A stretch of DNA of 53,870 nucleotides from a virus, in the IMG/VR virus record IMGVR_UViG_3300037842_000514; one strand, given 5' to 3'. The position numbers were made by a program, and so were the translations under genes. This document shows, piece after piece, positions 1,617 to 37,251 of this stretch (positions are counted from its first letter, which is position 1; each line of letters opens with the position of its first letter). The notes beneath the pieces were generated by a model. The model was not told the origin of the DNA. It ran no database searches and saw only the letters and a list, made by a program, of their open reading frames with translations.

Positions 1617-2021
1617 TTAATTTAAAATTACTACTTTTTTATTTAAATCTTCAGCGTATCCTATAGTATTCAGCGTCCCTTTAGACACCTTACCTTCAGG
1701 TATAAACGCTATAATGCAATCACTATATTCAGCGATTTCTTTATTACGTTTAGCATAATACCAAACACCATACGGCTTACCATAATATTTAGATTCATTA
1801 ACACAGTGTTGATTATATGTGTAATGTGCTGGTGGGAATTCTGAGTATTTCATATCAAACTCTAGTGCATATTTCTTAGCTAAACCATCAGCTCCGAACT
1901 TTTGACCACCACTCACTATCTCAACATCATCGCCGAACTTTTCTTTTAATTTAAAGATAAACTCCTTAATCTTCTTACGGTTAGTGTACTCTCTGCTACC
2001 AACAATGCCAACTCTTTTCAT
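1617..2021 (-). CDS. SLOG superfamily (DprA/YspA-like) nucleotide-binding protein
   Basis: RVGIVGSR, IVSGG..GADGLA, RNKEIAEYSD.IIAF and SKGTLNTI motifs. Confidence 0.7.
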   Translation of the reverse strand: MKRVGIVGSREYTNRKKIKEFIFKLKEKFGDDVEIVSGGQKFGADGLAKKYALEFDMKYSEFPPAHYTYNQHCVNESKYYGKPYGVWYYAKRNKEIAEYSDCIIAFIPEGKVSKGTLNTIGYAEDLNKKVVILN

Positions 2022-2519: not shown

Positions 2520-3391
2520 TATCGTTTCCTATCACATAGTTCTGGTTTAGTTTTAAACTCACACCATTTGCAATTCTTTGCAGAAGGTTCTTTTCTGTAA
2601 GTTCCGGTTGTTTTATATTCACCATCAATAAAAGCGTCATCTAAAAAACTATTAAATTGAATCATAGTCTTGTTTATAGATGGAGTTCCATTAGCTGGGG
2701 CGAATATTTGTATTCTCTTTTGCGGAAAATCGACTTTTTCGTACAATTTACGTTTAACTATAAAGAATTCAACATCTATACTATTCAAAGGTACGTTGTA
2801 TTGTTTTGAATAAAATTGCTTATACAACAATAACTGATCGCTTTTTACTTTATCTTGCTTCATCCACTTATTCCACCCAACAGTAGATGTTTTTATATCT
2901 ATAATTTTGATACGATTTCTAAGAGTATCCTTTATAGCTATATCAATAAAACCTCTAAATGAGATGTGGTCTGATACTTGATGCTTCAACTCAATCTCAA
3001 CACCCAATAACTCATATCCTCTTTTAGAAAAATATTTATTCCTATTTTTTTTCAAGTAATCTAATATCGTAACTCCATCGTAGTAAAACTCTACCATTTC
3101 ATCTTGAGTACAAGGTTCTACCCCAGACGAGCTCTTTGTTATATCGATAAACTGCTCTTTCATACTAGCTAACAACATTGCGTTTAAGTCTAGGGCATCT
3201 GCATCTTTAGCAGTTTTAGTATACATTATAGTTAAATACTCTTGTATCACTTCATGAGCTGCACTTCCAAAAAGTGTAAATATATTCCCATGAAATTCTC
3301 GCATATCATCGACATAATTTAGTTTCCACTTCCAAGGGCACTGAACCCATTGTGAGAACTGAGAATAGCTTACAGACTTTATATCACTCAT
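2519..3391 (-). CDS. PD-(D/E)XK exonuclease, RecB/Cas4-like, with a probable Fe-S staple
   Basis: SYSQ..QCPWKW at the N-terminus; GFIDIA...IIDIKTS nuclease motif; QLLLY; C-terminal CKWCEF...C. Confidence 0.8.
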   Translation of the reverse strand: MSDIKSVSYSQFSQWVQCPWKWKLNYVDDMREFHGNIFTLFGSAAHEVIQEYLTIMYTKTAKDADALDLNAMLLASMKEQFIDITKSSSGVEPCTQDEMVEFYYDGVTILDYLKKNRNKYFSKRGYELLGVEIELKHQVSDHISFRGFIDIAIKDTLRNRIKIIDIKTSTVGWNKWMKQDKVKSDQLLLYKQFYSKQYNVPLNSIDVEFFIVKRKLYEKVDFPQKRIQIFAPANGTPSINKTMIQFNSFLDDAFIDGEYKTTGTYRKEPSAKNCKWCEFKTKPELCDRKR

Positions 3392-3801
3392 TTATGCCAT
3401 TTCCCATTCTTTACAATTTGTGCTATTATACCATATACAGCTAAATCTGCAAAAGCATCCATCACCGGTTCAGCTTCACCTTCAACATCTCGTTTGATTA
3501 TAAGATTGATTAATCTATTTACCTTATCATTAATACGTACGACTAATGCTGTGAGTGATAGTTTAACATCAGATGTATCCTTTAGATCAGTTCCCATACT
3601 AATGTTACCTGGGCCGTAATCGTGATGTTTTATCGCGAATAGGTTATATTGTTCTCGTTGAATTCTTCTGAACTCAGCCATCAATTCCGGATATTCTCGT
3701 TCTACCAACTGAATTACGTTATCACTGTCGTGGTTGATATCTGCTTCGAGGTCATCGTTCCCGTATAATATACGTTTACTACCTTCTTTCAAGTTAGTCA
3801 T
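3388..3801 (-). CDS. Nmad1/DUF1599 nucleotide-modification-associated alpha-helical protein
   Basis: LFAIKHHDYG..NI, VRINDKVNRL.NL and DAFADLAVYGII motifs. Confidence 0.7.
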   Translation of the reverse strand: MTNLKEGSKRILYGNDDLEADINHDSDNVIQLVEREYPELMAEFRRIQREQYNLFAIKHHDYGPGNISMGTDLKDTSDVKLSLTALVVRINDKVNRLINLIIKRDVEGEAEPVMDAFADLAVYGIIAQIVKNGKWHK

Positions 3802-6781: not shown

Positions 6782-7196
6782 GTTCTCTAATCCTTTTATC
6801 TTTTGCCCACATTTGTATTCGTTTTTTATTATCATAGGCCGTTATATGTGGATATCTGTCTTTATTAAAAACAGCTTCTCCTTTTTCAGCATATTCTAAT
6901 ATAGACGTTTGTTCTAATTTTAAAACATCTGGATGTGACATCTCAGATGGTTTTACTATCCAACCAACTTCAACTTCTTGAGCTATCGGACCTCTTAAAA
7001 TTTGCCTCCACGATGTCATATTATAAGTAGCACCTCCTCTATTGTAATAAAAGTCTAAATCACCACGTCTATGTGTGTTATCTAACTGAGCTATCGTTTT
7101 TGATGACGATCCTATATACATAACATGACCGGAAATGGTATTTTTATAAGCATAAACTCCACGTTTTATATTATCGCTCATGCCACACCTCACCAT
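6774..7196 (-). CDS. GIY-YIG-like endonuclease
   Basis: GVYAYKN...MYIGSS bipartite motif, followed by Arg and LEQ..I...N. Confidence 0.55.
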   Translation of the reverse strand: MVRCGMSDNIKRGVYAYKNTISGHVMYIGSSSKTIAQLDNTHRRGDLDFYYNRGGATYNMTSWRQILRGPIAQEVEVGWIVKPSEMSHPDVLKLEQTSILEYAEKGEAVFNKDRYPHITAYDNKKRIQMWAKDKRIRERG

Positions 7197-7686
7197 CTTT
7201 CATGTTATAATCACCAGTGTAAATACCTTGTGAATCTGATTCAGCAATAATAAATTGAGCTACACAAGCATCAACTTCTAAATGAGCGGTTCCTATGTGA
7301 TTATATAACATACCGCAAACTGGACCTTCGAACCCTGAATCGTATATACCAGAATGGACAAATAATCCGTTCCGATTTAAAGTTGATCTAGTATGTAACC
7401 ATCCAACATGCCCTTCTGGAACTTTTACATATACATTACTCATAAAATCATATGACCCCGTTCCAATTTCCCAAAGGCTTGACCTACCTACATTATCATC
7501 TACCATTGTAGGTGTTAGCTCTACTCTCGATCTGTGAGTTTTTCCATCTACATTCAACACAAAAACGTCATCTTGAACTTCCCACATCCTTGTCATTGGA
7601 ATATCCACCGCGTTAGGTTGTATACATTTAGACGGTACGTATTGAAGCCAACCATTATCAATCGCTTTTTTTGGATTAATAAACAT
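7171..7686 (-). CDS. trimeric dUTPase/dCTP-deaminase-fold protein
   Basis: QPNAVD, RSTLNRNG, GIYDSGFEG, AQF and C-terminal YTGDY. Confidence 0.75.
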   Translation of the reverse strand: MFINPKKAIDNGWLQYVPSKCIQPNAVDIPMTRMWEVQDDVFVLNVDGKTHRSRVELTPTMVDDNVGRSSLWEIGTGSYDFMSNVYVKVPEGHVGWLHTRSTLNRNGLFVHSGIYDSGFEGPVCGMLYNHIGTAHLEVDACVAQFIIAESDSQGIYTGDYNMKDGEVWHER

Positions 7687-8597
7687 TATCTTAAACCTCC
7701 ATCTACACCTTTATATATAACTGATATCGCATCATGTTTATGTAACGATTCGTGATGTGCACATACTACTACAAAGTCCAAAACCCTCGAATCTCCATCT
7801 AAAGCTTCATATGCAATTCTCCCAGCATCTTCACAAAATAGTAAATTTGAACCATTCAATCTAGCAAACTCCGCTTCATCTTCTCTCTTACACATAACCA
7901 ATACCTCTGTTGGTATAGCTTTACGCATAGTGAGTATTAAATCCTCGATTAGATATGGATCGTCAGGATTCAATTGAATGGTAACTTTTGCAGTACTTCT
8001 CTGTGAATGTGATACTACAGGCTCTCCAGTCTGTTCGTGGACATATTGACCCATTTCATACGAACAAGGACATGCTGACGAATAAATGTATTCGACTGTT
8101 AGAAATAACTTGACGTCGTTATTATGATCCATCTTACCTTCTAATATACACGAGTAATATTGCCATCCTTCTAGCTTAGATCTCAACGACATCTGTTTCA
8201 TTGGATAGTCGAATCTAAACTTTATATACGAATCTCGAGATTCAAGTTTATCTTTATAATCATTCAACACATCATGTAACAACTCAATACTCAAATCTGT
8301 ACTAAGATGATCATAAAGAGTTCTAACCAACCGTGACATGTTAATTCCTTTAGTCTCTTTCGTTAACGACACATATGCTGATACTGTCGTTTTTAACTTT
8401 ATCGCTTTACCTTCTTTTGAAAAATACTTGACTGGTACTTCAACACCTTTTACTCCAACTTTCTGAATATTAGCCTCTGCCCCTCTAGTGGATAGATAAT
8501 TCTGAACATCAGGTAAGTTATCCCAATCAACGTTCTTTGGTAAATCTGATAGTTGTATAGCTGGTCCAGATGATGGACATTGTTTTTCATTACTCAT
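7686..8597 (-). CDS. folE2: GTP cyclohydrolase IB (FolE2)
   Basis: LPDVQ, IQKVG, KGINMSR, SACPCS, HSQRS, NLLFCED, HHESLHKHDA. Likely start is MSNEKQ at 8597. Confidence 0.92.
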   Translation of the reverse strand: MSNEKQCPSSGPAIQLSDLPKNVDWDNLPDVQNYLSTRGAEANIQKVGVKGVEVPVKYFSKEGKAIKLKTTVSAYVSLTKETKGINMSRLVRTLYDHLSTDLSIELLHDVLNDYKDKLESRDSYIKFRFDYPMKQMSLRSKLEGWQYYSCILEGKMDHNNDVKLFLTVEYIYSSACPCSYEMGQYVHEQTGEPVVSHSQRSTAKVTIQLNPDDPYLIEDLILTMRKAIPTEVLVMCKREDEAEFARLNGSNLLFCEDAGRIAYEALDGDSRVLDFVVVCAHHESLHKHDAISVIYKGVDGGLR

Positions 8598-9427
8598 TAT
8601 TTGTTCTCCAAATGTATAGTTTTCCACACTAAAAAGTTATGGTCGACTGTTTCTATTTCTTTTTGATTTAACTTTTTGTCAAAATTTAATTTTTCCATTA
8701 TTATTTCATCTACATATCCATCTTGGATGGAACTTCCATTATACCCATATACGAAAGGCATAGATGTGTCGTTTGATCTTATAAAATCCCAACCATTATC
8801 ATAATAATACATCAATTCATTTACACCTACATTATCAGATCCGAGTAAGTGTAATTCTTTATTAAAGATATCTGGTGTCATTTTAGCTGAAACTAAAGCA
8901 TTTAAACACTTGATACGACCACTACTACAATTTCCACTTTCGTGGTGGTTTCCTATAAAACTCTCTGGCACTGCAAGCTTAGAAAAACCTATAACATCTA
9001 CATCATCAATGCGAATCAACTCTTCATAACACTTCATCCATTCGTCTTCAGATCTACCTTGAGGTATTGCCATAAATTTTGTGTTTTCAAACCCCAACGG
9101 ATTTCGCCGTTTCCAAAACTTCAAGAAGTCTTTTACTGAATCGACAGTGTCACTACCATTAAACAATACATCTATTGCACACACTTCATCTGGATTGATT
9201 TTCATAGCTGCATCATATACTAAATCTAACGATACTCCATGACCTTGTTCTTCAAACTCAAAAGCTGAATTATCCATTATCACGTATTTATTAGACTGCT
9301 TTCCGTAGAACTCAGCATACTTATCATCTTCTAATACTTTATGTGCGAGACACAAATGCCTATCACTTAACGTCGCATGACTATTCAGATGTGGTGTACT
9401 TGTGATGTAACAAATATCAATTTTCAT
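8597..9427 (-). CDS. TIM-barrel TGT/DpdA-like protein, putative 7-deazaguanine transglycosylase or nucleotide synthase
   Basis: VIMDNSAFE (compare TGT DSGGF), MAIPQG, LHLLG and IRSNDTS match the positions of TGT catalytic motifs; located inside the folE2/queD/queE cluster. Confidence 0.6.
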   Translation of the reverse strand: MKIDICYITSTPHLNSHATLSDRHLCLAHKVLEDDKYAEFYGKQSNKYVIMDNSAFEFEEQGHGVSLDLVYDAAMKINPDEVCAIDVLFNGSDTVDSVKDFLKFWKRRNPLGFENTKFMAIPQGRSEDEWMKCYEELIRIDDVDVIGFSKLAVPESFIGNHHESGNCSSGRIKCLNALVSAKMTPDIFNKELHLLGSDNVGVNELMYYYDNGWDFIRSNDTSMPFVYGYNGSSIQDGYVDEIIMEKLNFDKKLNQKEIETVDHNFLVWKTIHLENK

Positions 9428-9806
9428 TTACTATACCTCCTTGTATATTATCTTCAAAAACAGAAACTTTCCAATTTCGTTTAACTTTTTTAAAAAACTT
9501 TTGTTTTCTATATTTTTTCTCCAACTGCTCGAGGATGACTTGTCCAATCATTTCACAACTCGAACTTCCAAACTTCTTTATATATTGGCCTGGATATGTA
9601 TTATCAATAATCTTCATCAACTCCAATCGTAACATTATGAATTCTATCTCTCTATCATCATGCGTTACATTACATTCCACATATATGTGAAAGTCGTGAT
9701 GATGTTCGTATTGTAAGAAACCCACTTCCGGAAAGAATTTATCTACATCAGGCCAATTGTGTGTCCCTAATACGATGTGCTTCACTTTAATTTGTGCACT
9801 ATTCAT
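9417..9806 (-). CDS. QueD-paralog T-fold protein, DpdL-like (putative CDG decarboxylase)
   Basis: FLQYEHHHDF resembles the LxxxHRHxF signature recalled for DpdL; also DREIEFI, SCEM and VSVFED; a canonical QueD is present separately. Confidence 0.6.
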   Translation of the reverse strand: MNSAQIKVKHIVLGTHNWPDVDKFFPEVGFLQYEHHHDFHIYVECNVTHDDREIEFIMLRLELMKIIDNTYPGQYIKKFGSSSCEMIGQVILEQLEKKYRKQKFFKKVKRNWKVSVFEDNIQGGIVNEN

Positions 9807-10377
9807 TTATAATATCCATTAAACTTTTAACATTCGACTGTAAATCTTTCAGCGTTCCTGAATTATCTAACACGTAATCTGCTTTTGTTGGTGAATTTGG
9901 ATCGTTCGATAGATGTTCAGTTATGTGGTTGATTTGATCTACATCTGTTAATGTTGATCGACCACTAATGTATATTATAAATCCACCATTTCGTTTAACG
10001 TAATCCCACTCATTCTGAAATCTAATGTCAGTTACTACTATTTTATCGTGATCATCTACCATCGATTTTACTGACAAATTTATCCAATAATCATCTCCAT
10101 GACGATTCCTCATATCCATTCCATATTCTTGTATAAAGCGTCTAATTGACAAATTGAACACCAAATGTCCGTCCATATAAGGATTGTGTTCGACTACATC
10201 TAAGTCTTTATTTTTATGTGATTCTAACGTTAATCTATCTATTTGTAAGTATCTACACAAATCATCCTTCATAACATCAGCTGATGCAGTTCTACGAAAT
10301 CCTTCAATTTTTAGTAAATCAGAAATGCTATCCTTTCCACAACCAGCTGGTCCTATTAAACCTAACAACGTTTTCAC
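9799..10377 (-). CDS. deoxynucleoside monophosphate kinase (T4 gp1/T5-like)
   Basis: GPAGCGKDS P-loop, RRFIQEYG, DYWI, VVTDIRFQNE. Confidence 0.85.
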   Translation of the reverse strand: MKTLLGLIGPAGCGKDSISDLLKIEGFRRTASADVMKDDLCRYLQIDRLTLESHKNKDLDVVEHNPYMDGHLVFNLSIRRFIQEYGMDMRNRHGDDYWINLSVKSMVDDHDKIVVTDIRFQNEWDYVKRNGGFIIYISGRSTLTDVDQINHITEHLSNDPNSPTKADYVLDNSGTLKDLQSNVKSLMDIINE

Positions 10378-11156
10378 TAAACTTCCCTATCAGTATCAAA
10401 TGCGATTATATGATCTCTACCAGTCATCCTATACCCATGTTCAGCGACCATATCGAACACCTTAGGATACATCTTGATTAATTCTTCTCTACAATCACCT
10501 GCAGGCATGATATAAGTTTTACTTTTTGGAATATTCATTCTCACTCTAAATGCCTCTATTTCTTTTAGGTTGACTATAGTACCATCCCATACTGGTTTGA
10601 AATGATAATCAGTGTGGTATTCTATTAATTCTTCAATTGCATTGTAATTTAACCTAAATCTATCATGTAAGTCAACAAATTTCTGATCGACTACTTTGCC
10701 TTTTGGTGTAATTGCTCCTATAACTGGAACTGAATTACTGAACTTAGGACTGAGACTAATAAGATCAATCGGTAAGTCAGTTATGATCGGATGAGATCCT
10801 TCAGTTTCCATTGTAACTATGATCCCACGTTCACTTGCAAAATACATTAGTTCGTTTACCAAATCAGAATGCATGCTTGGCGACCCACCAGTCAACATCA
10901 TTTCTTTTATGTGTGGATTTTCATCATAAATGTCAATTATATCTTGAAATGTATATTTCCCTTTCTCTGGATGTATAGAATTTTGCCAGCTATCACACCA
11001 CCCACCATCACCGAAGAAGCAGCGATGTGTACAGCCTAAACAACGTACTGCTATAGTAGGTATTCCAAATCTACTACCTTCCGACTGAACGCATCGATAT
11101 AGCTCATTAACTGGTAGCACTTTATCATAATTTGGTATTCTTCCTATTTTTTCCAT
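10377..11156 (-). CDS. queE: 7-carboxy-7-deazaguanine synthase (radical SAM)
   Basis: CVQSEG, GCTHRC-FFGDGGW-CD, LTGGSP, METEG, SLSPK. Confidence 0.88.
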   Translation of the reverse strand: MEKIGRIPNYDKVLPVNELYRCVQSEGSRFGIPTIAVRCLGCTHRCFFGDGGWCDSWQNSIHPEKGKYTFQDIIDIYDENPHIKEMMLTGGSPSMHSDLVNELMYFASERGIIVTMETEGSHPIITDLPIDLISLSPKFSNSVPVIGAITPKGKVVDQKFVDLHDRFRLNYNAIEELIEYHTDYHFKPVWDGTIVNLKEIEAFRVRMNIPKSKTYIMPAGDCREELIKMYPKVFDMVAEHGYRMTGRDHIIAFDTDREV

Positions 11157-11195: not shown

Positions 11196-11726
11196 TTATA
11201 GTACATCCTCGAATAGATTTTCATTCCATTCTCTATGCCCTTCACGATAAGCCATGTTAGTTTGCGTTTCACGTACTTCTACTCTAAAACACCAAAGTCT
11301 TTCCGCCTCACCTGGCCCCCACATATCTGGAATAAATACTCCATTTACATATTTGTATAATTGATCAGCTATAGATTCACACCCTAAATTTGGTAATATA
11401 CAAAGTCTTGCCAAACCTCGCTTTTCTAATTCTTTATACAGATCCATTTCAGGTTCATCTTCAGCTACTAATAGTGTATGGTCGAATTGATCATCAAGGA
11501 GTTGTTTGAGTTCTCCAAGTCCACCATAATCAGCGGCCCAATTTCTAACATCCAAATCATTTGTACCGAAGTAGAATTTCATACTGAGACTATACCCATG
11601 AATAACATTACAATGACTATCTGCTCTCCATTGCCTATATGCTACTGGGAACTTATCTACGTATTCTTTCGTACTAACATATTTGTATGTTACTGGTGTT
11701 TTATTTTCAATTTGCATATTCTTCAT
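11196..11726 (-). CDS. queD: 6-carboxy-5,6,7,8-tetrahydropterin synthase
   Basis: HCNVIHGY, DYGGL, QFDHTLL, GCE, VEVRET. Confidence 0.88.
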   Translation of the reverse strand: MKNMQIENKTPVTYKYVSTKEYVDKFPVAYRQWRADSHCNVIHGYSLSMKFYFGTNDLDVRNWAADYGGLGELKQLLDDQFDHTLLVAEDEPEMDLYKELEKRGLARLCILPNLGCESIADQLYKYVNGVFIPDMWGPGEAERLWCFRVEVRETQTNMAYREGHREWNENLFEDVL

Positions 11727-11837: not shown

Positions 11838-14351
11838 TTAGAAGAACCGCTCTAATGAAACTTTAGTATCAATTGGCTCAGTCCACGATAACGCTTCATA
11901 AATAATTTTTACTTTTTTATATAACGCGTTATCAAATATAGTATCATAATCAATATACGTTTTTATAAAATCTAAGATTTCGATCGGATCATCGTATCCT
12001 TTAAAAGCTATAGACTTGTAATTTAAACTATTAGGTTTAAGATATATCCACTTCACTTTTTCTCCACTATTAATCGGTGTATATTCATCGCTGACTTTTA
12101 AATATTTTAACAGATCGTTATATCTCACTGATGATTTTACATGAATCGGTGTTCCTTTATTAAATTCAGTTGCTATGCTATCACTTTTCCTTATAAATTT
12201 CTTTATATTTGATATGCCAGTTGGTGAAGCAATCTCATCTATAGGAAGAGTTTTCATGTGAGATTTAAAACTCATTATATCATTATCTATTTTGGATTTA
12301 TCCACATCTCCCAATATATCAACAAGCACTCCCATCATTAATTTTTGAAAAGATGGAGCAAACGAACTTTTAATAACATCCAAACCTTTAATATCTAACC
12401 TATCACACGCGATACCATTATCATTGATAATTTTTTGAGCATATCGTTTCTTAGTAACCCAAAAAGCTCGTTTAGCTATAACTTCTTGTTTAATATCAAA
12501 TTTATGTGGTCCTTTAATATTTAAAAATCTCTGTGCAAATAGATCATACGAATCATTTAAAAACTTTTGAACATATGATGTGATTCCTAACACTTGACTA
12601 GTCATAAACTGCTCATCTTCATAATCAGCTTTAGGGTATCTGTGCTTAATTATCGGAAGAGCACTTGCAAAAATAGAATCAGTATCTATATACACTACAT
12701 GGTCTTTATCTACATTCAATTCTTTATTATAAATATAATTTACCATCTTCTGTGAATATTTAATTAAATGCTGTCCTGTAAGTGTAATAGCTTCAGAATT
12801 ATCTGTATCGTAAAATCTGAATATCGGTAAACCGAATACTCCATATACTGTATTGAGAAGAATCTTCTGAATATATTGTCTACGATTAAAGTACTCTGAT
12901 TTTGATTGATCGCCAGCATCGTGATATTTTTTAGATAGCTTTCTATATTCTTTTCGTTCATTGAACCATTTTGAGAGAATTGCAGGTATTAATCCAGTTT
13001 TCTCTTGGTTATACATAACTCCAGTTACTGCAATGGATATTTTATTTATGTCTAATAGGGTTTTAACTTCACTTGTATTATACTGTCGTTTAATTTTCCC
13101 ATCGACTATAAAATCATATACTTTATCAGTCCCTTTAAGATATTCATCAATATCCCAACCGTCTAACTTTCCCAATTTCATCTCTGGTGATATATTCATT
13201 GACATTATAATTGACGGATACATTGACGTAATATCTAGATCATATATCCATTTATGTTTACCCGGAATTGGATCTTTTACGTAAGCTCCAACATATTTAA
13301 TGTTAGTAGGGACGTTTGATTTTGGTGCTTTGTTTGGTGCCACTACACCTATTCGTCTCATATACGTTAACATAGCACCTTCAATATATCGACTAGAATA
13401 TACTACATCTTCATATGATATATGACCGAGATGACTAACACCCATAGCTAATGTTATGAAGTCTAACTTCTCGTTCAATTTCACGATCAACTTAACATCT
13501 TGTAAGTTATATTCTATAAATTTATTAATCTCATTTAAATACAAATCAGTTAAGCTTCCATCATAAGACACCTTCTTCTGCCCAACCTCAAGTTCACCAA
13601 TATAGTCTAACCTATAAGATGGTTGTTGTTTAAATGTAAATTTTTTATATAACGTGAGATAATCTAAAACTGAAACACCAGCTATTTTAAATCGTTCTTG
13701 TCTATCGTTGAAATTTACTATACTAATTGGAGATAATGCGTTTGCAATTTCCGATCCCAACACCACCACCGTTCTATTATATAAATACGGTATATCAAAT
13801 CCATCAACATTCCACCCACTTAACACGGTTGGTGCGATTTCAATGTATTTTTGAAAAAACCGTTGCAATAACTCTCCCTCATCAGTAAATAGTTCAACTG
13901 ATACGTTATCTTTAGTGTAAGCAATAGCTTCTGAAGATTGAGTGCAGGTGTATACAAAATAATCATCAGTGGTCTTATCATATAAAGCTATAGATGTTAT
14001 TGGTTGATCTGCAAGTCTCCAATCTGGAAACCCTGCTGATGATTCAGTTTCAATATCAAAGTATAATTCTCTATGCCCTGTAGCAATATCATCAGAATCG
14101 CCGTATTTATCGATTAAGATTCTCGTTTCAATTGGTACGTCACTTTCAAATATCTTGTTTTTTTCGACATCATCATGTGTCCAAAACTGAACTCTCTTTA
14201 AATTATCACCATATAATGATTTATAAGTACCTGCTCCATACTTTTTATAAGCATAACTCTTAACATTAAATTTAGTATATCCAGTCTTATCATCCCAGAG
14301 ATGTACTTCATTGAATTTTTTATGCCGTCTACAGTATATATTCTGATACAA
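11838..14351 (-). CDS. family B DNA polymerase (T4 gp43-like), TTG start
   Basis: ExoI FDIET, ExoII GWNVDGFDIPY, motif A DITSMYPSII, motif B KILLNTVYG, motif C YIDTDS. Confidence 0.96.
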   Translation of the reverse strand: MYQNIYCRRHKKFNEVHLWDDKTGYTKFNVKSYAYKKYGAGTYKSLYGDNLKRVQFWTHDDVEKNKIFESDVPIETRILIDKYGDSDDIATGHRELYFDIETESSAGFPDWRLADQPITSIALYDKTTDDYFVYTCTQSSEAIAYTKDNVSVELFTDEGELLQRFFQKYIEIAPTVLSGWNVDGFDIPYLYNRTVVVLGSEIANALSPISIVNFNDRQERFKIAGVSVLDYLTLYKKFTFKQQPSYRLDYIGELEVGQKKVSYDGSLTDLYLNEINKFIEYNLQDVKLIVKLNEKLDFITLAMGVSHLGHISYEDVVYSSRYIEGAMLTYMRRIGVVAPNKAPKSNVPTNIKYVGAYVKDPIPGKHKWIYDLDITSMYPSIIMSMNISPEMKLGKLDGWDIDEYLKGTDKVYDFIVDGKIKRQYNTSEVKTLLDINKISIAVTGVMYNQEKTGLIPAILSKWFNERKEYRKLSKKYHDAGDQSKSEYFNRRQYIQKILLNTVYGVFGLPIFRFYDTDNSEAITLTGQHLIKYSQKMVNYIYNKELNVDKDHVVYIDTDSIFASALPIIKHRYPKADYEDEQFMTSQVLGITSYVQKFLNDSYDLFAQRFLNIKGPHKFDIKQEVIAKRAFWVTKKRYAQKIINDNGIACDRLDIKGLDVIKSSFAPSFQKLMMGVLVDILGDVDKSKIDNDIMSFKSHMKTLPIDEIASPTGISNIKKFIRKSDSIATEFNKGTPIHVKSSVRYNDLLKYLKVSDEYTPINSGEKVKWIYLKPNSLNYKSIAFKGYDDPIEILDFIKTYIDYDTIFDNALYKKVKIIYEALSWTEPIDTKVSLERFF

Positions 14352-14416: not shown

Positions 14417-15347
14417 TTAATTAGCGTAATCTTGATCATCGTTATCCCCAGCGATTGGTATTATCTCACAAGTGTCGTTATTACAAAACTTGTCGGGTTC
14501 AGCTTCTTCACCTTCAATACCGGCGAAGCTTAACTTTCCTAATTTCGAAAGCATTTTATTGTATTTTTTTTCATCAATTTCCTCATATGGCATTTGTCTA
14601 TAAGCCCCATACTCATGTCTCGGTAATAATGATATCCCTTTTAACTTGTATTGAAAATATTCAAGTACATGTGGTAGTTGTGTAGATTCAACTGCAGGAT
14701 TAAATGTTGCTGTACAACTTACTTGATTGTCTGCCCAATGTCTCTGTAAGAATGCTGCTAGGCTGAATTGTTCCCATATAGATAGTTCTCCTACAGTTCG
14801 AATTCCTTCACCAATATCAATTGGAACCTCAACAACTACTGTCGAATCTTCACTACCAAATGCTGGTTCTAAATTGTAGTTTGCTTTCTTTAACGACTCT
14901 ATCAATTCTGATTGTTTAGATAATCTCATTCGTCGTATATAAAATCTACTTTCCGGATAGTGCATTCCTGGAGTAGCTCCTACTAATAAACTAACAGTTC
15001 CAGAAGGTTTAATGCTACTCAACTTTATACTTCTTGGTACAGCTAACCAATCTGAGTACATCTTATCCCATTTCGTTAGCTCATTATACCCTTCTTCACA
15101 CCACGTTTTTAAAGAATCCAATCCCCTATTAGTAACAAATTGTGCTATACCACTCATCGATGTACCAATTCTTCTATTTCTCAGCATAACTCGATTGGTG
15201 TCAGGCCAGTGTGTTTTTCCTAATGTAACTGTTTTTGCATATAAGTATGCATACTTTAATGTCTTCTTATAATCTTCTAAGTCGTCGTGGTGGTGTGGGA
15301 AAGTTTCCACAAGACAACATAATTCATAAGATTCTAAACTTTGTTCG
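14417..15347 (-). CDS. nrdJ: class II ribonucleotide reductase, 3' exon (C-terminal part)
   Basis: Frame reads EQSLESYELCCLVETFP...RNRRIGTS...IKPSGTVSLL...C-terminal FCNNDTC; joins to 15523-15635 after intron removal. Confidence 0.9.
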
Positions 15348-15522
15348 CTTTTTACGGATTGTATCAGTAAACTTTCAATCTATAAGGTGGACTGTCGCAT
15401 CTTCATTAGAAGTTTCTCCGCTCAGTCTCTCACGCTGGCTTTACCCTTGCGCCCTGTCGGCGTTTCACTCGCCTTCCAAGTCAATCAGGAGAAATTTATA
15501 CTACCCCGGGACTTGTTAGTTA
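15348..15522 (-). mobile_element. 175-nt group I intron without an ORF
   Basis: The 5' exon ends in U (ACTGCCT) and pairs with IGS GGGTAGT (15500-15506) with a U.G wobble. P3 TTTCTCC/GGAGAAA; P7 GAGACTG/ACAGTC; P8 CTTC-TAAT-GAAG; terminal G. Removal restores the frame TGC CTC GAA CAA (C-L-E-Q). Confidence 0.85.
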
Positions 15523-15635
15523 AGGCAGTTGTGGATTAATATATTATTAGCCACAAAATTGTGATTATTTTCTACACTCAAATCGTATACGTCTTGATTT
15601 TTATCATGTAATATTGTTTTAAGCAATCTTCCCAT
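15523..15635 (-). CDS. split intein C-fragment (36 aa) plus the first extein codons of NrdJ
   Basis: MGRLLKTILHDKNQDVYDLSVENNHNFVANNILIHN/C with blocks F and G; GGAG RBS upstream; too short for the ORF track. Confidence 0.88.
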
Positions 15636-16668
15636 AAGATTTAATCTCCGTTAAATAATTGTTAATTGAACTAAAGTATTTTTCGATACTTTTTTTAGTA
15701 ATCCCAAAGGTTTTTGGAACAGCTTCAGTTTTATTTTTTCTCTCTATTATGATATTATTAATATCAGTAATCTCTTTTATGTTGTATAATTCAAGTAAAA
15801 CCCCATACTTTAACATTTTAGTTTTATATGAATTAATTGAACTATTTTTTGGTAATGGTTTTCGTGGTTTACCAATCAAATTATTGTATCTATTAGTGCA
15901 TCCATTCTTTTTACACGTTTTTCTATCGATATCGCTTACAATCCTGTATTCGAATACATCTCCACAAATAATACAATTAGATACTTTTATTGGATCAGTT
16001 ATATCCTTTCCTTCCCAAAATAATTTACTCTCTTCCTTGCGTTGTGCTGATATTATCTCCCGCCTTTTCATACCATCTGGTGTATTATAAAAAGCACGTA
16101 TAGATTTGCTAAGTCTATCAGTATATTTTTTATCAGATGCCCGTTCGGCTGTTTTTTTTCCAATTTTAAGTTTAGTTTCATCTGAAGATGTCGTGCCGTA
16201 TCTTGGATTGTTTTTACCTCTCATATCCACAGTTTTATGGTTTTTAATAGAAGCTTCAATCCATTCTTTAACACCATTTTCAAGTTTATATTTTTTAACT
16301 ATTTTGCTAATGTGTTTATCCCACACTACCAAATACCGTATTCCGATATTTCCAAACAATTTATTGTATTTATAATAATAATCCATAGCTTCTTTTTTAG
16401 AGCTTTTGACTTCTATAATTGTTCTAATTTTATCATTAACAATATGAAAAAAATCAGGCTTGTAACTTTTACCATCAAATTCGTATATTTTACTTTCATA
16501 TAAAAATGACATATTAGCTATATCCAACCATTTAGCAATAACAAATTCACATTTACTGCGTAAATAATATTTTTTATTATCTTTTGTTGTATAATACCCG
16601 ACATAACTTCTATGATTAGTATCACCTCTCTTAATTTTCCCATGTTTTTGTTCACAATATGTTTTCAT
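15619..16668 (-). mobile_element. free-standing homing endonuclease (TnsA-like PD-(D/E)XK with NUMOD3 and Zn-finger) between the intein halves
   Basis: LRSKCE...YE...YKPDF...IIEVKS; GKNNPRYG..SDETKLKIG; CIICG...C...C. Confidence 0.75.
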
Positions 16669-16701
16669 AATTCATCTCTTTTTAGTGGTTGTTTATCTAA
16701 T

Positions 16702-16710
16702 AATAAATAT
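16702..16710 (-). promoter_or_regulatory. putative late-promoter motif ATATTTATT before the endonuclease gene
   Basis: Same motif recurs 15-45 nt before starts at 22138, 37008, 40611 and 48317. Confidence 0.45.
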
Positions 16711-16746
16711 AATAGAATTAAAAAATAAACACTAAAATTAAAAGAA

Positions 16747-18141
16747 TTATGTTATTATTTTAATATTATCATCTTCAGTTAAATCTTTAGCTTCTACATA
16801 CCCCTTATTGGTTGTATAGACTTTATGGTCAGGGGTACAAGTAAGTTTATAGATATTTCCATCTTCTTCAATCTCTAACGTCATGATAGAAACATCCTTT
16901 CTGCTTAACCAAGCGTTAGTAATAACATTGTATTCTAATGATAGAGTATTTTCATTAAAAGTTAATGCTTTAATTTCTTCACCGTTTTTTACCAGTTCTA
17001 CAACTTCTTCAACGGTTAATTTACCTTTATCAGTATTAACTAATGTATCACCAACTACACATGGATTTCCACCAGCTACCCTATGGTCTTTATTATCACC
17101 ACCATTTTTCATACGAGAATACTTTCTCATATTATCTAACCACGCAATTCCAGGTTCACCATTATCTACTATTCGTTTACATATATCAGTATAATCCATT
17201 CCTAATTCAGCGAATACTGAGTTATTGGAAGTCCATCCGTAATCTTCCCTATGAGGGTTTTTCTTGTAATTCTTTAGATCTAAATATTCTTCTGAGTGTG
17301 GATCTCCAAATACAATCTCAGCTGTGCGCCTTACATTACCGGCCACTACACACTTACCAATCAAATTCATGATGTCCACAATTGTAGTTACTGTAATTGG
17401 TTGTCCTATATTGATGTCTAATATTTTTTTAATTTTATTATTAATTTCCTCTAATGGATCAGGACCACTACTAATTCCCCCAAATCCTTTAATGGGTTCT
17501 CCCAACCCTCTGATTAACGAGTAATCAAATTCTACATCTACAGTTCCTACGAAGTAGCTATCCAACACCATCTTTACAGATTCTACCCAACCTTCTCGTG
17601 TATCTGGAATCCGAAATACATTGGATGTTTGTGATAAGTTTAATTTGGGACCTTTAATAACAATCTCACCAGCACCTTTTGTATCGAAACCGACACCCAC
17701 TCCTAACATAGAAGCGTCCATTAGGAATGTGAATGGTTTAGATAAATCTTCCTTAATAGTCTTAGTTGAAACGAACGCACAATTGTTAAGTGCTGCGTAT
17801 AATTTCTTTTCTTCTGTTATAGCAGTTCCCATTGCCCATAACCCACGACCGGGTGGAAGGAATTTCATACTCCACATTCTCTCGTACATTTCTTGAGCTG
17901 AGTTTTGAGCTTGCCATGGATTCCAACCTAATTGGTGCTGTTCAATCCACTGCTTTTGCATATTGTAAGTACCTTCTACAACTCGTCTAATAGTTTCCCA
18001 CCATCTCTCATTTTTACCATTATCTTTGATACGGGAATATGTTCTCATATAAACTAACTCACCAAGACCATTGAAACCGAATGGTGGTTTTTTTCTTTTA
18101 TATTTATTTATAAATGATTCCGTTAAAACAAACTTATCCAT
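16747..18141 (-). CDS. nrdJ: class II (AdoCbl) ribonucleotide reductase N-terminal part fused to a split intein N-fragment (104 aa, 16750-17061)
   Basis: RTYSR, FLPPGRGLW, LNNCAF, GNVRRTAEI, GGNP|CVVGDT (block A), TCTPDHKVYT (block B), then a stop. Confidence 0.92.
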   Translation of the reverse strand: MDKFVLTESFINKYKRKKPPFGFNGLGELVYMRTYSRIKDNGKNERWWETIRRVVEGTYNMQKQWIEQHQLGWNPWQAQNSAQEMYERMWSMKFLPPGRGLWAMGTAITEEKKLYAALNNCAFVSTKTIKEDLSKPFTFLMDASMLGVGVGFDTKGAGEIVIKGPKLNLSQTSNVFRIPDTREGWVESVKMVLDSYFVGTVDVEFDYSLIRGLGEPIKGFGGISSGPDPLEEINNKIKKILDINIGQPITVTTIVDIMNLIGKCVVAGNVRRTAEIVFGDPHSEEYLDLKNYKKNPHREDYGWTSNNSVFAELGMDYTDICKRIVDNGEPGIAWLDNMRKYSRMKNGGDNKDHRVAGGNPCVVGDTLVNTDKGKLTVEEVVELVKNGEEIKALTFNENTLSLEYNVITNAWLSRKDVSIMTLEIEEDGNIYKLTCTPDHKVYTTNKGYVEAKDLTEDDNIKIIT

Positions 18142-19705: not shown

Positions 19706-20762
19706 TATATTCTTTAGCTAATCTATTTAACTTAGACCACGATTGATTTAACCAAGATTCGAAATTGGGTATACCATTAAACATTCTATCCTTCATGAAT
19801 TCTAATTGGAAATGTGGTTTATTTAAGATAGGAACCTTCCCTCTAACTATATCATTGATCTTCAATTTTGCATTATTTGATATGTCAACTTCATGTAACT
19901 GCATTAATTTGTAATTTAGTTCTAATTGATCTTTAGAAGCTACAACATTTCTAAATATTTTCAATAAATCTTTATTCTTTTCTGAAAACTCTAAGAGGTC
20001 TTTGATATTAAATGCATTATTCTCATCTAAAATACCCGGAAATCTTTTCTTAATTGTTTTAAATCCTGCACCTTGTACTCCAGGAATATTATCTGATTTA
20101 TCACCTTCCATCACTCTACCCATCAGAAAATTTATGCATGGGATGCCATACTCTTCAAATAAATTGTCAGGCTTATATAACTTTTTCTTAGTAGGGCTCC
20201 ATACACTAATTCTATCATCTACCAATTGTAAAAAATCTTTATCTGAAGACATTAATATAATATTATTATTTGATTTGTTTAAAATTTGTTTAGTGATGTA
20301 AGCCATAGTATCGTCAGCTTCTATATTATCGATAGCTATAGTGCTTATAGGTAAAAACTCTAAATACTTTGATACCATCGATAATTGCATCATCATATTT
20401 TGGCGCTCATCAGCATGAGAATTAAAATTTGATACTCTATTGAGTCTAGATTTAACTTTTCTGTTAGCTTTATAATCTGGATACAATTTACGGCGACGGA
20501 CGGACCCACCCTTACCATCAAATACGATGATACATCGAGTGGGTCCTAATAATTTCACAGCATAACCAACTGATTTTAAAAAACCTACTATTCCCCCAAT
20601 GTGAACTCCATCTTCATTGAGAGTAGGTATAACGCTAAATACTCGTATAAAAGTATTTAATCCATCTATAATCAGTACTTTATCATTAATGTCCCCTGTG
20701 TCGGACTTCCCGCCATGTTTTTTTATTTCTTCTAATATCGATAAATATTTATCATTACTCAT
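19695..20762 (-). CDS. 5'-3' exonuclease/flap endonuclease (T4 RNase H-like)
   Basis: IIDGLN, FDGKGG, YKANR, EADD, SSDKDF, GDKSDNIPGV.G.G.KT. Confidence 0.92.
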   Translation of the reverse strand: MSNDKYLSILEEIKKHGGKSDTGDINDKVLIIDGLNTFIRVFSVIPTLNEDGVHIGGIVGFLKSVGYAVKLLGPTRCIIVFDGKGGSVRRRKLYPDYKANRKVKSRLNRVSNFNSHADERQNMMMQLSMVSKYLEFLPISTIAIDNIEADDTMAYITKQILNKSNNNIILMSSDKDFLQLVDDRISVWSPTKKKLYKPDNLFEEYGIPCINFLMGRVMEGDKSDNIPGVQGAGFKTIKKRFPGILDENNAFNIKDLLEFSEKNKDLLKIFRNVVASKDQLELNYKLMQLHEVDISNNAKLKINDIVRGKVPILNKPHFQLEFMKDRMFNGIPNFESWLNQSWSKLNRLAKEYNGS

Positions 20763-21186
20763 CGCCGGTCACATCTTCAGTAAATTGAACATCATCTATA
20801 CCCAAATTTGCAGTTTTATATTGCAACACCATTTTATCACATATCAAATCATAGAGATAGTTTTTTAGTCCATCAACTTCAGCTAGTTTTAATTCAAACT
20901 CCTTTGATAGAAATTTCACATCTTTACCATTGTAGTTTACAGTATACCACGCTCCACCTTGTTTGATCAAATTATGCTCTTTTAGCACTGTCAACCATCC
21001 ACCGTAATTATCAATTCCTTTATCAAAGTACATATCATAATCTGCATGACGTAGTGGTGGGCCTAATCTATTTTTAATAACTTGAGCTCGACATTTCATT
21101 CCTAGTACGTTCTTCTTAGCGGTATCTTTAATTTGACCCATATTTTTTAATCTAAGTCTAGTAGATGCGTGGAATGGTAATGCTTT
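20755..21186 (-). CDS. recA: RecA/UvsX recombinase, 3' exon
   Basis: KALPFHASTRLRL...KNRLGPP...GAWY; the upstream ATG in the ORF track (21237) lies inside the intron. Confidence 0.88.
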   Translation of the reverse strand, partial: KALPFHASTRLRLKNMGQIKDTAKKNVLGMKCRAQVIKNRLGPPLRHADYDMYFDKGIDNYGGWLTVLKEHNLIKQGGAWYTVNYNGKDVKFLSKEFELKLAEVDGLKNYLYDLICDKMVLQYKTANLGIDDVQFTEDVTGDE

Positions 21187-22379
21187 CAATTTTGTTATCG
21201 TATAATCATTTAAATTATACATCTTATAATTTCTCATAAGTTCGGACTATATCTTTACCAAAATTTTGAATTAATTTTAATACATTCTTCTCTGTTATAT
21301 CAGATCCAAATATACGACATACGTTATATCCACATTCTTTTATTTCATTCAAACGAATATTATCTTTATCCCATACTGATTGAGCTGTTACTACTCTATT
21401 TCCTGGATATTTAATTAATTCATCTGAATCGTATTTCTTTGGATTTGCATGCCAATAATCACCATCCACTTCAAATACTAAATTGAAGTCTGGTAAATAA
21501 AAATCGACATAATATGCTTTTATTTTATCGTATTGATGTATATAGTTTATACCGCTATCTTCCAAAATACTTTTTACTTTTAATTCAATTTTAGTATTTC
21601 TAGAACCGCCAGGTATTTTATTTTTATATTTCCAATTCTGTAATCTTAGATCAGCTTCATCTTTTCCATATTTTTCAAACCACCTTTGCCAATTAGATTT
21701 TCCATAATGGTGATGAGCTGAACCTGTAATTGAACTCCACATTATACTTTCTGGATGATCGTTTACGTATTCTTTCATCACTTTACTGTGATTTTTTCTA
21801 TATTCAGCACTTTGAACTGCTTTTTTTACAGCATCCTTTCTTTTCTGAGAATGTCTACTTATGTCGTTCATTTTACGGCAATGGTTTTTATTACCATCAG
21901 AATAAATCCATTTTGCAAATTTATCGAAATGTGCGTTGGAAATCATTTTTGAATTTGGAAATGATAACTTATATTCATCAGTTGTCATTTTATGTTTAGT
22001 TTTTAAATGTGTATTTGTGATTGATTTAAAATCTGTATTACACAATTCACACTTTATTAATTCACTATTTTGGTATTCAGCGCTCGTGTTATTTTCATCT
22101 TCGTTATACATTTTACTCTCCATTATATCTTTATACATATAAATATAATGAAATGGGAAAACTTTACCCAATTTTTGTATATTAGTTTGAAGATTACTCA
22201 TATTAGTCTCTGAACCTTATTCTCATCACTGAGAGTCTTGGCTGCTGATTGTCCAATCCTACTTTTTTCAAACCGTCACGATTGTCATTACTAACTGCGT
22301 TGTGGTAAGTTAGGCTATCAGGAGTTTCCAGCAATTCACCGAATGTTTTATAGTGGAGGCAAAACATTACTTACGCAAT
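21187..22379 (-). mobile_element. group I intron (1193 nt) in recA carrying a homing endonuclease gene
   Basis: Exon AGTGGTGGT pairs with IGS GCCTCCACT (22352-22360). P GAATTGCTGGAAA, Q AATCAGCAGCCAAG, R GGTTCAGAGACTA (22204-22216), S AAGATATAGTCC (21244-21255), terminal G at 21187. Splicing yields TTSGG|KALPFH. Confidence 0.92.
21224..22111 (-). CDS. intron-encoded Vsr-like (EDxHD) homing endonuclease with an N-terminal C2H2-like finger
   Basis: CELC...H...H; YYVDFY...FEVDGDYWH...DKD. GGAG RBS before ATG 22111 (the ORF stays open up to 22201). Confidence 0.8.
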   Translation of the reverse strand: MYNEDENNTSAEYQNSELIKCELCNTDFKSITNTHLKTKHKMTTDEYKLSFPNSKMISNAHFDKFAKWIYSDGNKNHCRKMNDISRHSQKRKDAVKKAVQSAEYRKNHSKVMKEYVNDHPESIMWSSITGSAHHHYGKSNWQRWFEKYGKDEADLRLQNWKYKNKIPGGSRNTKIELKVKSILEDSGINYIHQYDKIKAYYVDFYLPDFNLVFEVDGDYWHANPKKYDSDELIKYPGNRVVTAQSVWDKDNIRLNEIKECGYNVCRIFGSDITEKNVLKLIQNFGKDIVRTYEKL

Positions 22380-22751
22380 ACCACCACTCGTTGTGTTATG
22401 ATTTACATATCCATTTGCAATATAATTTTCATTATCTTCTACGGATATATCAACAACATTTATTTCATCGTCCACTTTTTTAGCATCTGGATGATTTTTT
22501 AGATGCATGTAGCTATTATCACTACATTTTACTCTATGATTTCCTGTACCTTTTAAATCTCCCAATTTATAATGAGATTTAACTTTAGGTTTAACAAGAA
22601 AATCAAGAATTTGTTTATACTCAACATCACCATCATTATTGACTGATTCTACTTCCAATCCCATACCACTTAAATCTAATGATTCTGGATTATTGTAGTT
22701 CATATCAAATAATTCAGTAAGTTGAGCCATACTAACTGTTTTTTCTATCAT
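22380..22751 (-). CDS. atypically split intein C-fragment (119 aa, 22395-22751) plus a 5-codon RecA exon TTSGG
   Basis: Block B TGNH, block F VVDISVEDNENYIANG, block G HN/T. Confidence 0.87.
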
Positions 22752-23514
22752 TGGTATTCTCCTGTGTCATTTGTTGTAATTTATTATGATATTCACCAAA
22801 AAAAGGTGAATCTTCATCGTATCGTATCTTAATATTAGTTGTTTCAGGATCAACACACCATGGATCTCCAAAGGACACACCTAATTTCTGACGTAGTTGA
22901 TTAGTAAACACTAAAGCTATTTTCTGCCGTCCTATCATTTGAGTAATCTTTCTTAACGCTTTTGAGATAATAATAGCCTTTGCTGTAGCCCAACCATCTT
23001 TATCAAAATCTGCTTCTAATTCTACTTTAGTAGTTGCTGCCGCTAACGAATCCACTAAAATTGTAACTAATCTATCTTTATCGGATTCTCTAACTTTAGT
23101 AACGATTTCTTCAATAGCACTAAATATATCTTCTACAGTTTCCAAATGTAGATAGAGCATATTAGACACATCTACCCCAATAGCTTCCAAAAACTGTTTG
23201 CTAACTGACGTTTCAGTATCCACATAAACTGCCACTCCACCCTTTTTCTGCGTTTCAGTTAGAATATGTGCTCCTAATAGAGATTTTCCACTGGATTCTA
23301 ATCCAGTAATTTCAGTGATTCTACCTACTGCAATACCACCATCTTTCCGATTCGATATTGCTAAATCTAACATCGATGATCCTGTTGAGATAAAATCGCT
23401 AATATCTGTAGGTGTACTATCTGTTCCATCTAGAAAGTATGCAACTTTCATATCTTTAAATTGTTTATTTATATTATCAGCCAAGACATTAGCTAATTCG
23501 TCTCTTATAGACAT
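22732..23514 (-). CDS. recA: RecA/UvsX N-terminal part fused to a short intein N-fragment (41 aa, 22735-22857)
   Basis: GLESSGKS, ILVDSLA, FTNQLRQK.GV.FGDPW|CVDPETT (intein block A), then a stop. Confidence 0.92.
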   Translation of the reverse strand: MSIRDELANVLADNINKQFKDMKVAYFLDGTDSTPTDISDFISTGSSMLDLAISNRKDGGIAVGRITEITGLESSGKSLLGAHILTETQKKGGVAVYVDTETSVSKQFLEAIGVDVSNMLYLHLETVEDIFSAIEEIVTKVRESDKDRLVTILVDSLAAATTKVELEADFDKDGWATAKAIIISKALRKITQMIGRQKIALVFTNQLRQKLGVSFGDPWCVDPETTNIKIRYDEDSPFFGEYHNKLQQMTQENTNDRKNS

Positions 23515-36687: not shown

Positions 36688-36703
36688 TTTTAAGTAATCT
36701 TAA

Positions 36704-36964
36704 TTATAAATTTACTAAGGTTTGTAATAATTTATTATTCGATTGAGCTGCTCGGTTCTTAACATCATTTCCTAACCTCTCCATATCACTCGCGGTTTTT
36801 TCAGCTTCTTTCTCTATCCGCAGTACCTGAGCAAGCATATCTTTATCACCAGTCGCTTTTATAGCCTTATATAATTGAGTATGTTGCTTCTTATTGTTTC
36901 CTTTAACAAAAAAATTGAACAATTTCTTCCCCACACCTTCATTGATACTTATTTTTTTAGACAT
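36704..36964 (-). CDS. hypothetical protein
   Basis: Likely start MSKKISINEG with a GAGG RBS; promoter-like motif at 37008-37016. Confidence 0.6.
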   Translation of the reverse strand: MSKKISINEGVGKKLFNFFVKGNNKKQHTQLYKAIKATGDKDMLAQVLRIEKEAEKTASDMERLGNDVKNRAAQSNNKLLQTLVNL

Positions 36965-37023
36965 AATGTGTTCCTCTACTAATTTAAATTGAATATAATA
37001 ACTCAATAATAAATATCAAATTA

Positions 37024-37251
37024 TTAAGTTTTTCGCGATGATGGTGGCCTACTTAACCCCTTATTTTGCTTAGTAGACTTTTCCATTTGCTTCGCCTCTT
37101 CTTTATAACTAAGTTCGAGTTGTTTCAAATAGAACATACGTAAGTATGTGGGCATCATATAAACTTCATTAAATGTGAATCCACCTTTACCGTGGAAGCA
37201 TAGTTGATAGATTTGTTTGTGTATGTTAGGTTTATCTTCTGGTTTTAGGCC
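37024..37251 (-). CDS. frameshift extension of the tail assembly chaperone (GT-like)
   Basis: 75-codon open frame (GLKPEDKPNIHKQIYQLCFHGKGGFTFNEVYMMPTYLRMFY...) starting right at the T7 run and lacking its own upstream start. Confidence 0.6.
   Translation of the reverse strand, partial: GLKPEDKPNIHKQIYQLCFHGKGGFTFNEVYMMPTYLRMFYLKQLELSYKEEAKQMEKSTKQNKGLSRPPSSRKT

Follow-up and report, generated by a model that had tools for sequence, protein, structure and literature searches.

Replacement of a base ahead of DNA synthesis is known from two phage modules: the gp56 dCTPase, gp42 dCMP hydroxymethylase and gp1 deoxynucleoside monophosphate (dNMP) kinase of T4, and MazZ, DatZ and PurZ of S-2L. The DpdA proteins of phages with 7-deazaguanine-modified DNA include DpdA3, a family first named in 2023, for which no activity has been reconstituted so far and whose founders are phiST gp042 (CGPG_00065), an immuto protein and Campylobacter proteins (Cui et al. 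2023, PMC10516641). In phage phiST, 2'-deoxy-7-deazaguanine (dDG) replaces all G, and the replacement of G amounts to 100% in DpdA3 phages compared with at most 30% for other DpdAs (PMC10516641). Here we analyzed a DNA stretch of 53,870 nucleotides from a virus (IMG/VR record IMGVR_UViG_3300037842_000514; the whole stretch is called the window below), which carries a divergent DpdA3 gene at positions 8597–9427. In an earlier note made from the letters alone, this open reading frame (ORF) had been read as a divergent enzyme of the tRNA-guanine transglycosylase (TGT) fold, possibly a separate DpdA subfamily acting on a free nucleotide. Our results place the protein within the named DpdA3 family. 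The genes around it and around its relatives tip us slightly toward free deoxyguanosine monophosphate (dGMP), not DNA, as its substrate, with the base exchange taking place before DNA synthesis.

The ORF proposed in the earlier note was borne out, and the strand, which the note had not named, can now be added. The gene is on the minus strand, with an ATG at 9427 and a TAA at 8599–8597, and encodes a strongly acidic protein of 276 amino acids (aa; isoelectric point, pI, 4.9). An AAGGAGG Shine-Dalgarno sequence was found 8 nt 5' of the ATG. In addition, the start shares 11 nt with the end of the preceding small ORF (DpdL-like, see below), and at the other end TAATG combines the stop with the ATG of FolE2, the next gene. 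This strong ribosome-binding site and the overlaps with both neighbors indicate that the gene is real and translationally coupled to them; with its homologs and confident fold, it is a genuine gene well beyond chance. All four motifs mentioned previously are present in the protein (DNSAFE at residue 52, PQG at 122, HLLG at 193 and SNDTS at 218). The zinc motif is indeed missing, as none of the six Cys residues (6, 26, 83, 133, 167 and 174) forms a CxCxxC.

To characterize the protein family, we compared the window protein with several databases. No Pfam family was found at E <= 0.1, and hence no match to PF01702; NCBIfam contained no family for it either, PHROGs returned one unannotated family only, and megablast against phage records gave no match. 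Using tblastn against 50,697 phage records, we detected phiST gp042 (27% identity, E 3e-19), a protein of Flavobacterium phage immuto_2-6A annotated as DNA guanine transglycosylase (E 3e-7), and further matches in Chryseobacterium, Vibrio, Aeromonas and Weizmannia phages. A family profile built around the window protein detected the phiST, immuto and CPt10 proteins with E-values of 3e-72, 1e-57 and 7e-50, respectively. The protein also has 23 metagenomic homologs with 45–68% identity, and an exhaustive profile search followed by clustering at 50% identity yielded approximately 3,600 family representatives at E <= 1e-3, typically of 250–290 aa. In the literature searched, the name DpdA3 is used for this protein only by Cui et al., and its other uses are in unrelated yeast papers.

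Phylogenetic analysis was based on a maximum-likelihood tree of 51 rows, obtained with a quick search. DpdA1 was split from DpdA3 by a long branch with 100% support, and the window protein was located in a 99%-supported subclade, known so far from metagenomes only, that is nested among phiST, immuto/CPt10, BSTP10 and a fusion protein. The idea of a separate DpdA subfamily had to be given up, since the window protein falls inside the named DpdA3 clade, with phiST, immuto and CPt10 as fellow members; by sequence, it is a new, divergent member of the known family. It resembles the DpdA3 proteins of phiST (gp042), immuto_2-6A (gp206) and Firehammervirus CPt10 (gp055) in fold, in the zinc-less build of about 260–280 aa, in motifs and in clade. 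For the DpdA3-like BSTP10 gene 071 (L174:5899-6687) and its counterparts in BSTP12 and BSTP5, the GenBank annotation wrongly gives polynucleotide kinase, NadR or integrase. The Bacillus and Weizmannia phages with DpdA3-like genes carry QueC as well and therefore probably make a different 7-deazaguanine.

An AlphaFold2 model of the window protein, built on 15 homologs, had a mean pLDDT of 92.1 and a pTM of 0.90, with strands and helices alternating. The top Foldseek matches in PDB were all TGTs (5i07 at E 5.7e-9, with archaeal and human TGT as well), and the best match among viral models (BFVD) was the phiST DpdA3 M4SLA5 (E 1.4e-19, TM 0.85/0.90, root mean square deviation 2.2 Å). Thus, structure prediction and Foldseek agree on a TGT-like (beta/alpha)8 barrel, the fold that had been claimed. 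A narrow profile of 15 sequences detected nothing relevant among PDB sequences. A profile of 137 family sequences reached the bacterial DNA-guanine transglycosylase 7UI4, a marginal similarity seen by profile only (E 1.2e-3).

Multiple alignment of the 137 sequences revealed that R171, H193, G196 and D220 are invariant and that conservation is 90% or more at D52, N53, E57, D86, Q123 and G124. When the profile was aligned with 7UI4, VpQG was paired with VAHG (Q123 with H181), HLLG with HLLG, and D220 with the nucleophile D256; this alignment stops shortly past the nucleophile. Residues were also mapped with hhalign onto one sequence of E. coli TGT, a comparison that is not significant alone (Prob <1%) and rests on colinearity and the fold match. 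In this map D52, F56, D86, Q123, L195 and D220 of the window protein correspond to D89, F93, D143, Q187, M244 and D264 of E. coli TGT. In DpdA, positions D95, F99, D130, H181, L236 and D256 have acid/base, gate, base-recognition, stacking and nucleophile roles (PMC10164549). Judging from these alignments, all six TGT/DpdA active-site positions are kept in the window protein. The Asp residues previously suspected to lie at TGT-like positions, D52 and D220, map to the catalytic Asp residues of both TGT and DpdA.

The comparison with characterized enzymes also revealed clear differences. Bacterial DpdA (Salmonella Montevideo, 7UI4) is likewise a TIM-barrel, whose D256, D95, F99, D130 and L236 (of HLLG) are matched by D220, D52, F56, D86 and L195; however, it possesses a 128-residue insertion, Ins8, which makes up a positively charged DNA-binding crescent (PMC10164549). 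The window protein lacks Ins8 and has a TGT-like Gln (Q123) in place of DpdA His181. Bacterial TGTs (E. coli, Z. mobilis; PF01702) share the fold and the six active-site positions, and the same double-displacement mechanism is expected. Compared with TGT, the window protein is about 100 residues shorter, lacks the CxCxxC...H zinc subdomain and the tRNA-recognition insertions, and is encoded in a phage DNA-modification operon. The zinc subdomain (E. coli TGT C302, C304, C307 and H333) is deleted, with 56 residues following the nucleophile; H263 aligns with the zinc His, yet it varies across the family.

The short, zinc-less build of the protein had been pointed out in the earlier note. It is present but not specific, as DpdA1 (300–317 aa) also lacks CxCxxC. 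We rejected the argument that a short protein without zinc cannot bind DNA, because the DNA-acting DpdA1 has both traits. Acidity was rejected as an argument against DNA binding as well (median pI: DpdA1 5.6, E. coli TGT 5.97, DpdA3 5.1). Long family members were considered as functional fusions and mostly rejected, as the length of most of them is due to intein or LAGLIDADG insertions. DpdA3 homologs broken by inteins or LAGLIDADG homing endonucleases include P0102, P0124, P0133 and P0160; interruption of this kind is typical of essential replication and nucleotide-metabolism genes.

The window gene is part of a minus-strand cluster in the order PolB, QueD, QueE, T4 gp1-type dNMP kinase, DpdL-like, DpdA3, FolE2 and dUTPase-fold protein. 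The features are as follows:

11838–14351, minus strand: family B DNA polymerase, encoded immediately ahead of the cluster, recognized by polymerase motifs in the ORF translation; it would have to accept dDG triphosphate (dDGTP).
11196–11726, minus strand: QueD, 6-carboxytetrahydropterin synthase (PF01242 E 1e-12; phrog_2389 E 5e-33).
10377–11156, minus strand: QueE, 7-carboxy-7-deazaguanine (CDG) synthase, a radical SAM protein (phrog_2076 E 8e-42; PF04055; NCBIfam QueE models below cut-off).
9799–10377, minus strand: T4 gp1-type dNMP kinase (PF21448 E 1e-14; phrog_139 E 4e-40).
9417–9806, minus strand: DpdL-like T-fold protein of 129 aa with the motif LQYEHHHDF (37% identity to phiST gp040, DpdL, E 2e-13; phrog_17812).
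8597–9427, minus strand: DpdA3-family guanine/7-deazaguanine transglycosylase of 276 aa, with predicted roles of D52/F56 in acid/base catalysis and gating, D86/Q123 in base recognition, L195 in stacking and D220 as nucleophile; no zinc site.
7686–8627, minus strand: GTP cyclohydrolase FolE2 (PF02649 E 5e-69; NF010200 261.7 bits versus a cut-off of 215).
7171–7686, minus strand: dUTPase/dCTP-deaminase-fold protein (PF22769, PF00692; NF002598, archaeal-type dUTPase, 67.6 bits, below cut-off).

The genes from QueD through QueE, the dNMP kinase, DpdL, DpdA3 and FolE2 to the dUTPase-fold protein form a translationally coupled operon. The true start of FolE2 is probably the ATG at 8597, which has GGAG upstream and overlaps the DpdA3 stop, rather than the listed GTG at 8627. 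DpdL was proposed by Cui et al. to be a CDG decarboxylase (PMC10516641). QueC, QueF and the PP-loop motif were not found anywhere in the 53.9-kb window, to which the exclusion of QueC is confined. Given the lack of QueC, the predicted genome base is dDG, as in phiST. The role that the earlier note gave the protein, the key step of a modification pathway, is supported as the insertion step of a 7-deazaguanine pathway. The phiST locus has a similar context (FolE/QueD/QueE and DpdL, no QueC). It differs from the window in having FolE type I instead of FolE2, an AAA_18 kinase instead of the T4 gp1-type enzyme and a MazG-like protein instead of the trimeric dUTPase-fold partner, and the two DpdA3 proteins share only about 27% identity. 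No DpdB/ParB-like ATPase turned up among the annotated window ORFs, no search aimed at DpdB having been made.

Several additional genes were observed in or near such clusters. In the metagenomic loci, DpdA3 and the dUTPase-fold gene usually have a gene for a small DUF3310 protein (about 100 aa) between them (L063:7818-8126 and 22 other loci); the window has no such protein in that slot, where FolE2 stands. A 137-aa ORF at 3388–3801 (minus strand) weakly matches DUF1599 (nucleotide modification associated domain 1), and a 134-aa SLOG/YpsA-like protein is encoded at 1617–2021 (minus strand); either gene, close to the cluster, may have an additional part in nucleotide handling. The stretches 14417–18141 and 20755–23514 of the window encode a class II ribonucleotide reductase with an intein-splicing domain, seemingly split around a free-standing endonuclease-like ORF (NUMOD3), and RecA/UvsX, which is in two ORFs with a Vsr/HNH-like endonuclease ORF between them.

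We then compared the genomic context of DpdA3 genes in different phages. A kinase gene is located beside or fused to DpdA3 in seven lineages, and these kinases are mutually non-orthologous, probably the reason why Cui et al. did not detect homologs of the phiST kinase. The adjoining P-loop kinase belongs to the DNMK family (PF21448) in the window, to AAA_18 in phiST and Chryseobacterium phage MA9V-3, and to AAA_28 in immuto; a DNMK also adjoins DpdA3 in Aeromonas phage Ahp1 and Vibrio phage D479. In Bacillus phage BSTP10 and Weizmannia phage Youna2, a P-loop protein overlaps DpdA3 directly ahead of PolA. In Campylobacter phage CPt10 (L175, 5819-8313), a dADG phage in which DpdA3 is far from the que genes, DpdA3 is found between a DNMK-like 'thymidylate kinase' and an HD-phosphohydrolase/P-loop fusion protein. 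A natural fusion of a thymidylate-kinase-like P-loop domain to DpdA3 was identified on a metagenomic phage contig (P0173, L002:8001-9335), where the fusion gene is located between MazG and QueD-QueE-FolE. The T4-like Ahp1 (MT161459.1) has two dNMP kinases, at 36679–37248 and 210755–211375: the canonical gp1 kinase (168 bits) lies elsewhere in the genome, and a second, divergent one directly follows DpdA3. This arrangement indicates a dedicated function. A predicted complex of DpdA3 with the window kinase had a score of 0.00; the prediction was made without controls and carries no weight for or against binding.

To quantify these associations, we examined three genes either way of DpdA3 in 41 dereplicated loci from viral contigs, with 33 dereplicated DpdA1 (9g-type) loci as a control. 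DpdL was present in 38 of the 41 DpdA3 loci and a dCTP-deaminase-fold protein of about 170 aa in 36; a kinase was found in approximately 18, of gp1-type in 12. When the search was started from the dCTP-deaminase-fold protein, DpdA3 was found in all 37 dereplicated loci, including 23/23 of those with at least 2.5 kb on both sides. None of the 33 DpdA1 loci had a kinase, a dUTPase-fold protein or DpdL within three genes. The DpdA1 system (9g gp03) is otherwise similar to the window in having a compact, zinc-less transglycosylase beside FolE/QueD/QueE and DNA polymerase, but its loci contain Gat-QueC and its G replacement is at most about 30%. This pattern of kinases and hydrolases around DpdA3 is reproducible and undescribed in the literature.

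Comparative analysis of the dCTP-deaminase-fold partner revealed that the position of E. coli Dcd E138 is never Glu in its 38 members (V, A, M, C or T; Met in the window protein), and R110, S111, R115, D128 and G130 are invariant in all 38. The nearest solved sequence is a dUTPase. Because the catalytic Glu is lost and dUTPase models and structure are closest, the partner is probably a nucleotide-binding protein of pyrophosphatase type and not a deaminase, and it is a candidate dGTP (or other deoxynucleoside triphosphate, dNTP) pyrophosphatase. This deaminase-dead family seems to be a dedicated part of DpdA3 systems that has not been described before. In lineages that lack the family, its place is taken by MazG/PRA-PH (phiST, the fusion contig, immuto) or, in CPt10, by an HD enzyme. 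A phosphoribosyltransferase (PF00156) is located near DpdA3 in a minority of loci (L004:6786-7181, L039:798-1256 and five others); it could salvage guanine freed by base exchange into GTP for the pathway.

In the scheme that we infer, for the catalytic activity and the base as well as, above all, for the dGMP substrate and the dGTPase role, the base would be supplied from GTP by FolE2, QueD and QueE, giving CDG, from which DpdL, the proposed decarboxylase, would form 7-deazaguanine. The dUTPase-fold protein (MazG or the HD enzyme in other lineages) would hydrolyze dGTP to dGMP, thereby emptying the dGTP pool. DpdA3 would then use the double-displacement chemistry of TGT to swap guanine for the 7-deazaguanine base, converting dGMP and 7-deazaguanine to dDGMP and guanine. 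In this reaction a covalent deoxyribosyl-enzyme intermediate would form on the nucleophile D220, with D52 as the general acid/base and with D86, Q123, F56 and L195 holding the base. The embedded dNMP kinase would yield dDGDP, a host nucleoside diphosphate kinase dDGTP, and the phage polymerase would build the fully substituted genome from it. dGMP is among the substrates of T4 gp1, and polymerases use 7-deaza-dGTP well.

The modules of T4 and S-2L are similar to this scheme in that a dNTP hydrolase, a dNMP-remaking enzyme and a dNMP kinase are located beside the polymerase and substitution is 100%, and the window kinase is a homolog of T4 gp1. Such a combination is the signature of pre-replicative modification, and for this reason the dGMP reaction is favored. 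Unlike in T4 and S-2L, the central step proposed here would be the exchange of the whole base by a transglycosylase, which is undescribed in nucleotide-level pathways. The suggestion of a dGMP substrate made in the earlier note has gained considerable comparative-genomic support from the linked and fused kinases and from dNTP-hydrolase-type neighbors missing from DpdA1 loci, for what is still a proposed reaction. Besides the complete replacement of G in DpdA3 phages, two further observations favor this reading: free ADG nucleoside was observed in CP220-infected cells, and expression of DpdA3 in E. coli, with or without DpdL, gave no DNA modification (PMC10516641). Our literature search found no paper testing a nucleotide-level route for DpdA3. 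The broader proposal is that DpdA3 proteins are the first enzymes of the TGT superfamily to act on a free mononucleotide, as the core of a pre-replicative module (dGTP hydrolase, exchanger and dedicated dNMP kinase) explaining complete G replacement, with the deaminase-dead partner as a new, dGTP-directed member of the dUTPase superfamily. Taken as a whole, we consider this proposal evenly balanced.

Several points weigh against the nucleotide-level proposal, beside the insignificant single-sequence comparison with TGT mentioned above. To our knowledge, all characterized members of the TGT/DpdA superfamily act on a polynucleotide and none on a mononucleotide. Phages commonly have dNMP kinases and dUTPases, often within nucleotide-metabolism modules, and part of the DpdA3 synteny may be inherited, not selected. 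The dUTPase-fold partner could be an ordinary dUTPase. More than half of the 41 loci have no kinase within three genes of DpdA3. The DpdA1 control, widened after a first set that was too narrow, is still phylogenetically narrow and mostly 9g-like. Moreover, size, loss of zinc and acidity fail to separate DpdA3 from the DNA-acting DpdA1. Finally, Cui et al. found a DpdA in every modified phage and hence proposed post-replicative insertion (PMC10516641).

That proposal, in which the same enzyme with the same chemistry flips G out of phage DNA and inserts 7-deazaguanine while the kinase and the dUTPase-fold protein are chance neighbors for nucleotide supply, is the strongest competitor, and we regard it as a serious, though less probable, explanation. 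It agrees with the protein being homologous to transglycosylases that act on DNA and RNA through the same active site, it has been published for DpdA, DpdA1 and DpdA2 and proposed for DpdA3 (PMC10516641), it is compatible with the equally compact, zinc-less and acidic DNA-modifying DpdA1, and it is at ease with the many loci that have no nearby kinase. On the other hand, it leaves unexplained the repeated, independent recruitment of kinase families, the fusion and the extra Ahp1 paralog, as well as the near-obligate dNTP-hydrolase-type partner and the lack of both kinase and partner at DpdA1 loci. Complete replacement of G in all contexts by base flipping would be unprecedented among DpdAs, whose maximum is 30%. 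The unmodified E. coli DNA after heterologous DpdA3 expression and the missing 128-residue DNA-binding Ins8 of bacterial DpdA also argue against it.

In a second alternative, the base would be exchanged on a ribonucleotide (GMP, GDP or GTP), and the phage class II ribonucleotide reductase would then convert the product to its deoxy form. The window encodes such a reductase, and the phosphoribosyltransferase at some DpdA3 loci shows that ribonucleotide/base-salvage chemistry is nearby. This route is improbable in our opinion: the linked kinase is of the deoxynucleotide-specific T4 type, the hydrolase partners have folds that act on dNTPs (dUTPase/DCD, MazG and HD), and a pool of 7-deaza-GTP would enter RNA as well. 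A third alternative, suggested by the fold, is that the protein is a TGT for queuosine- or archaeosine-like modification of tRNA from the host or the phage, or else has the TGT fold but no catalytic activity; this is very improbable, given the lack of a PF01702 match, of the zinc subdomain or tRNA-binding C-terminal elements and of QueC, QueF and QueA, the invariant D220 and the at least 90% conserved D52, D86 and Q123 across about 137 diverse relatives, and the occurrence of named relatives in phages with fully substituted DNA.

For a divergent member of DpdA3, the genomic context offers a testable alternative to the accepted post-replicative mechanism. If exchange on dGMP is true, it would explain how some phages replace every G and would add a new type of reaction to the TGT superfamily. 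It would also account for the failure of DpdA3 expressed alone in E. coli, and hydrolase, DpdA3, kinase and base synthesis would then be the minimal set of genes for DNA fully substituted with 7-deazaguanine. Considering the approximately 3,600 metagenomic representatives of the family, the answer matters for many uncultured phages and for glycosylase-based defenses against such DNA.

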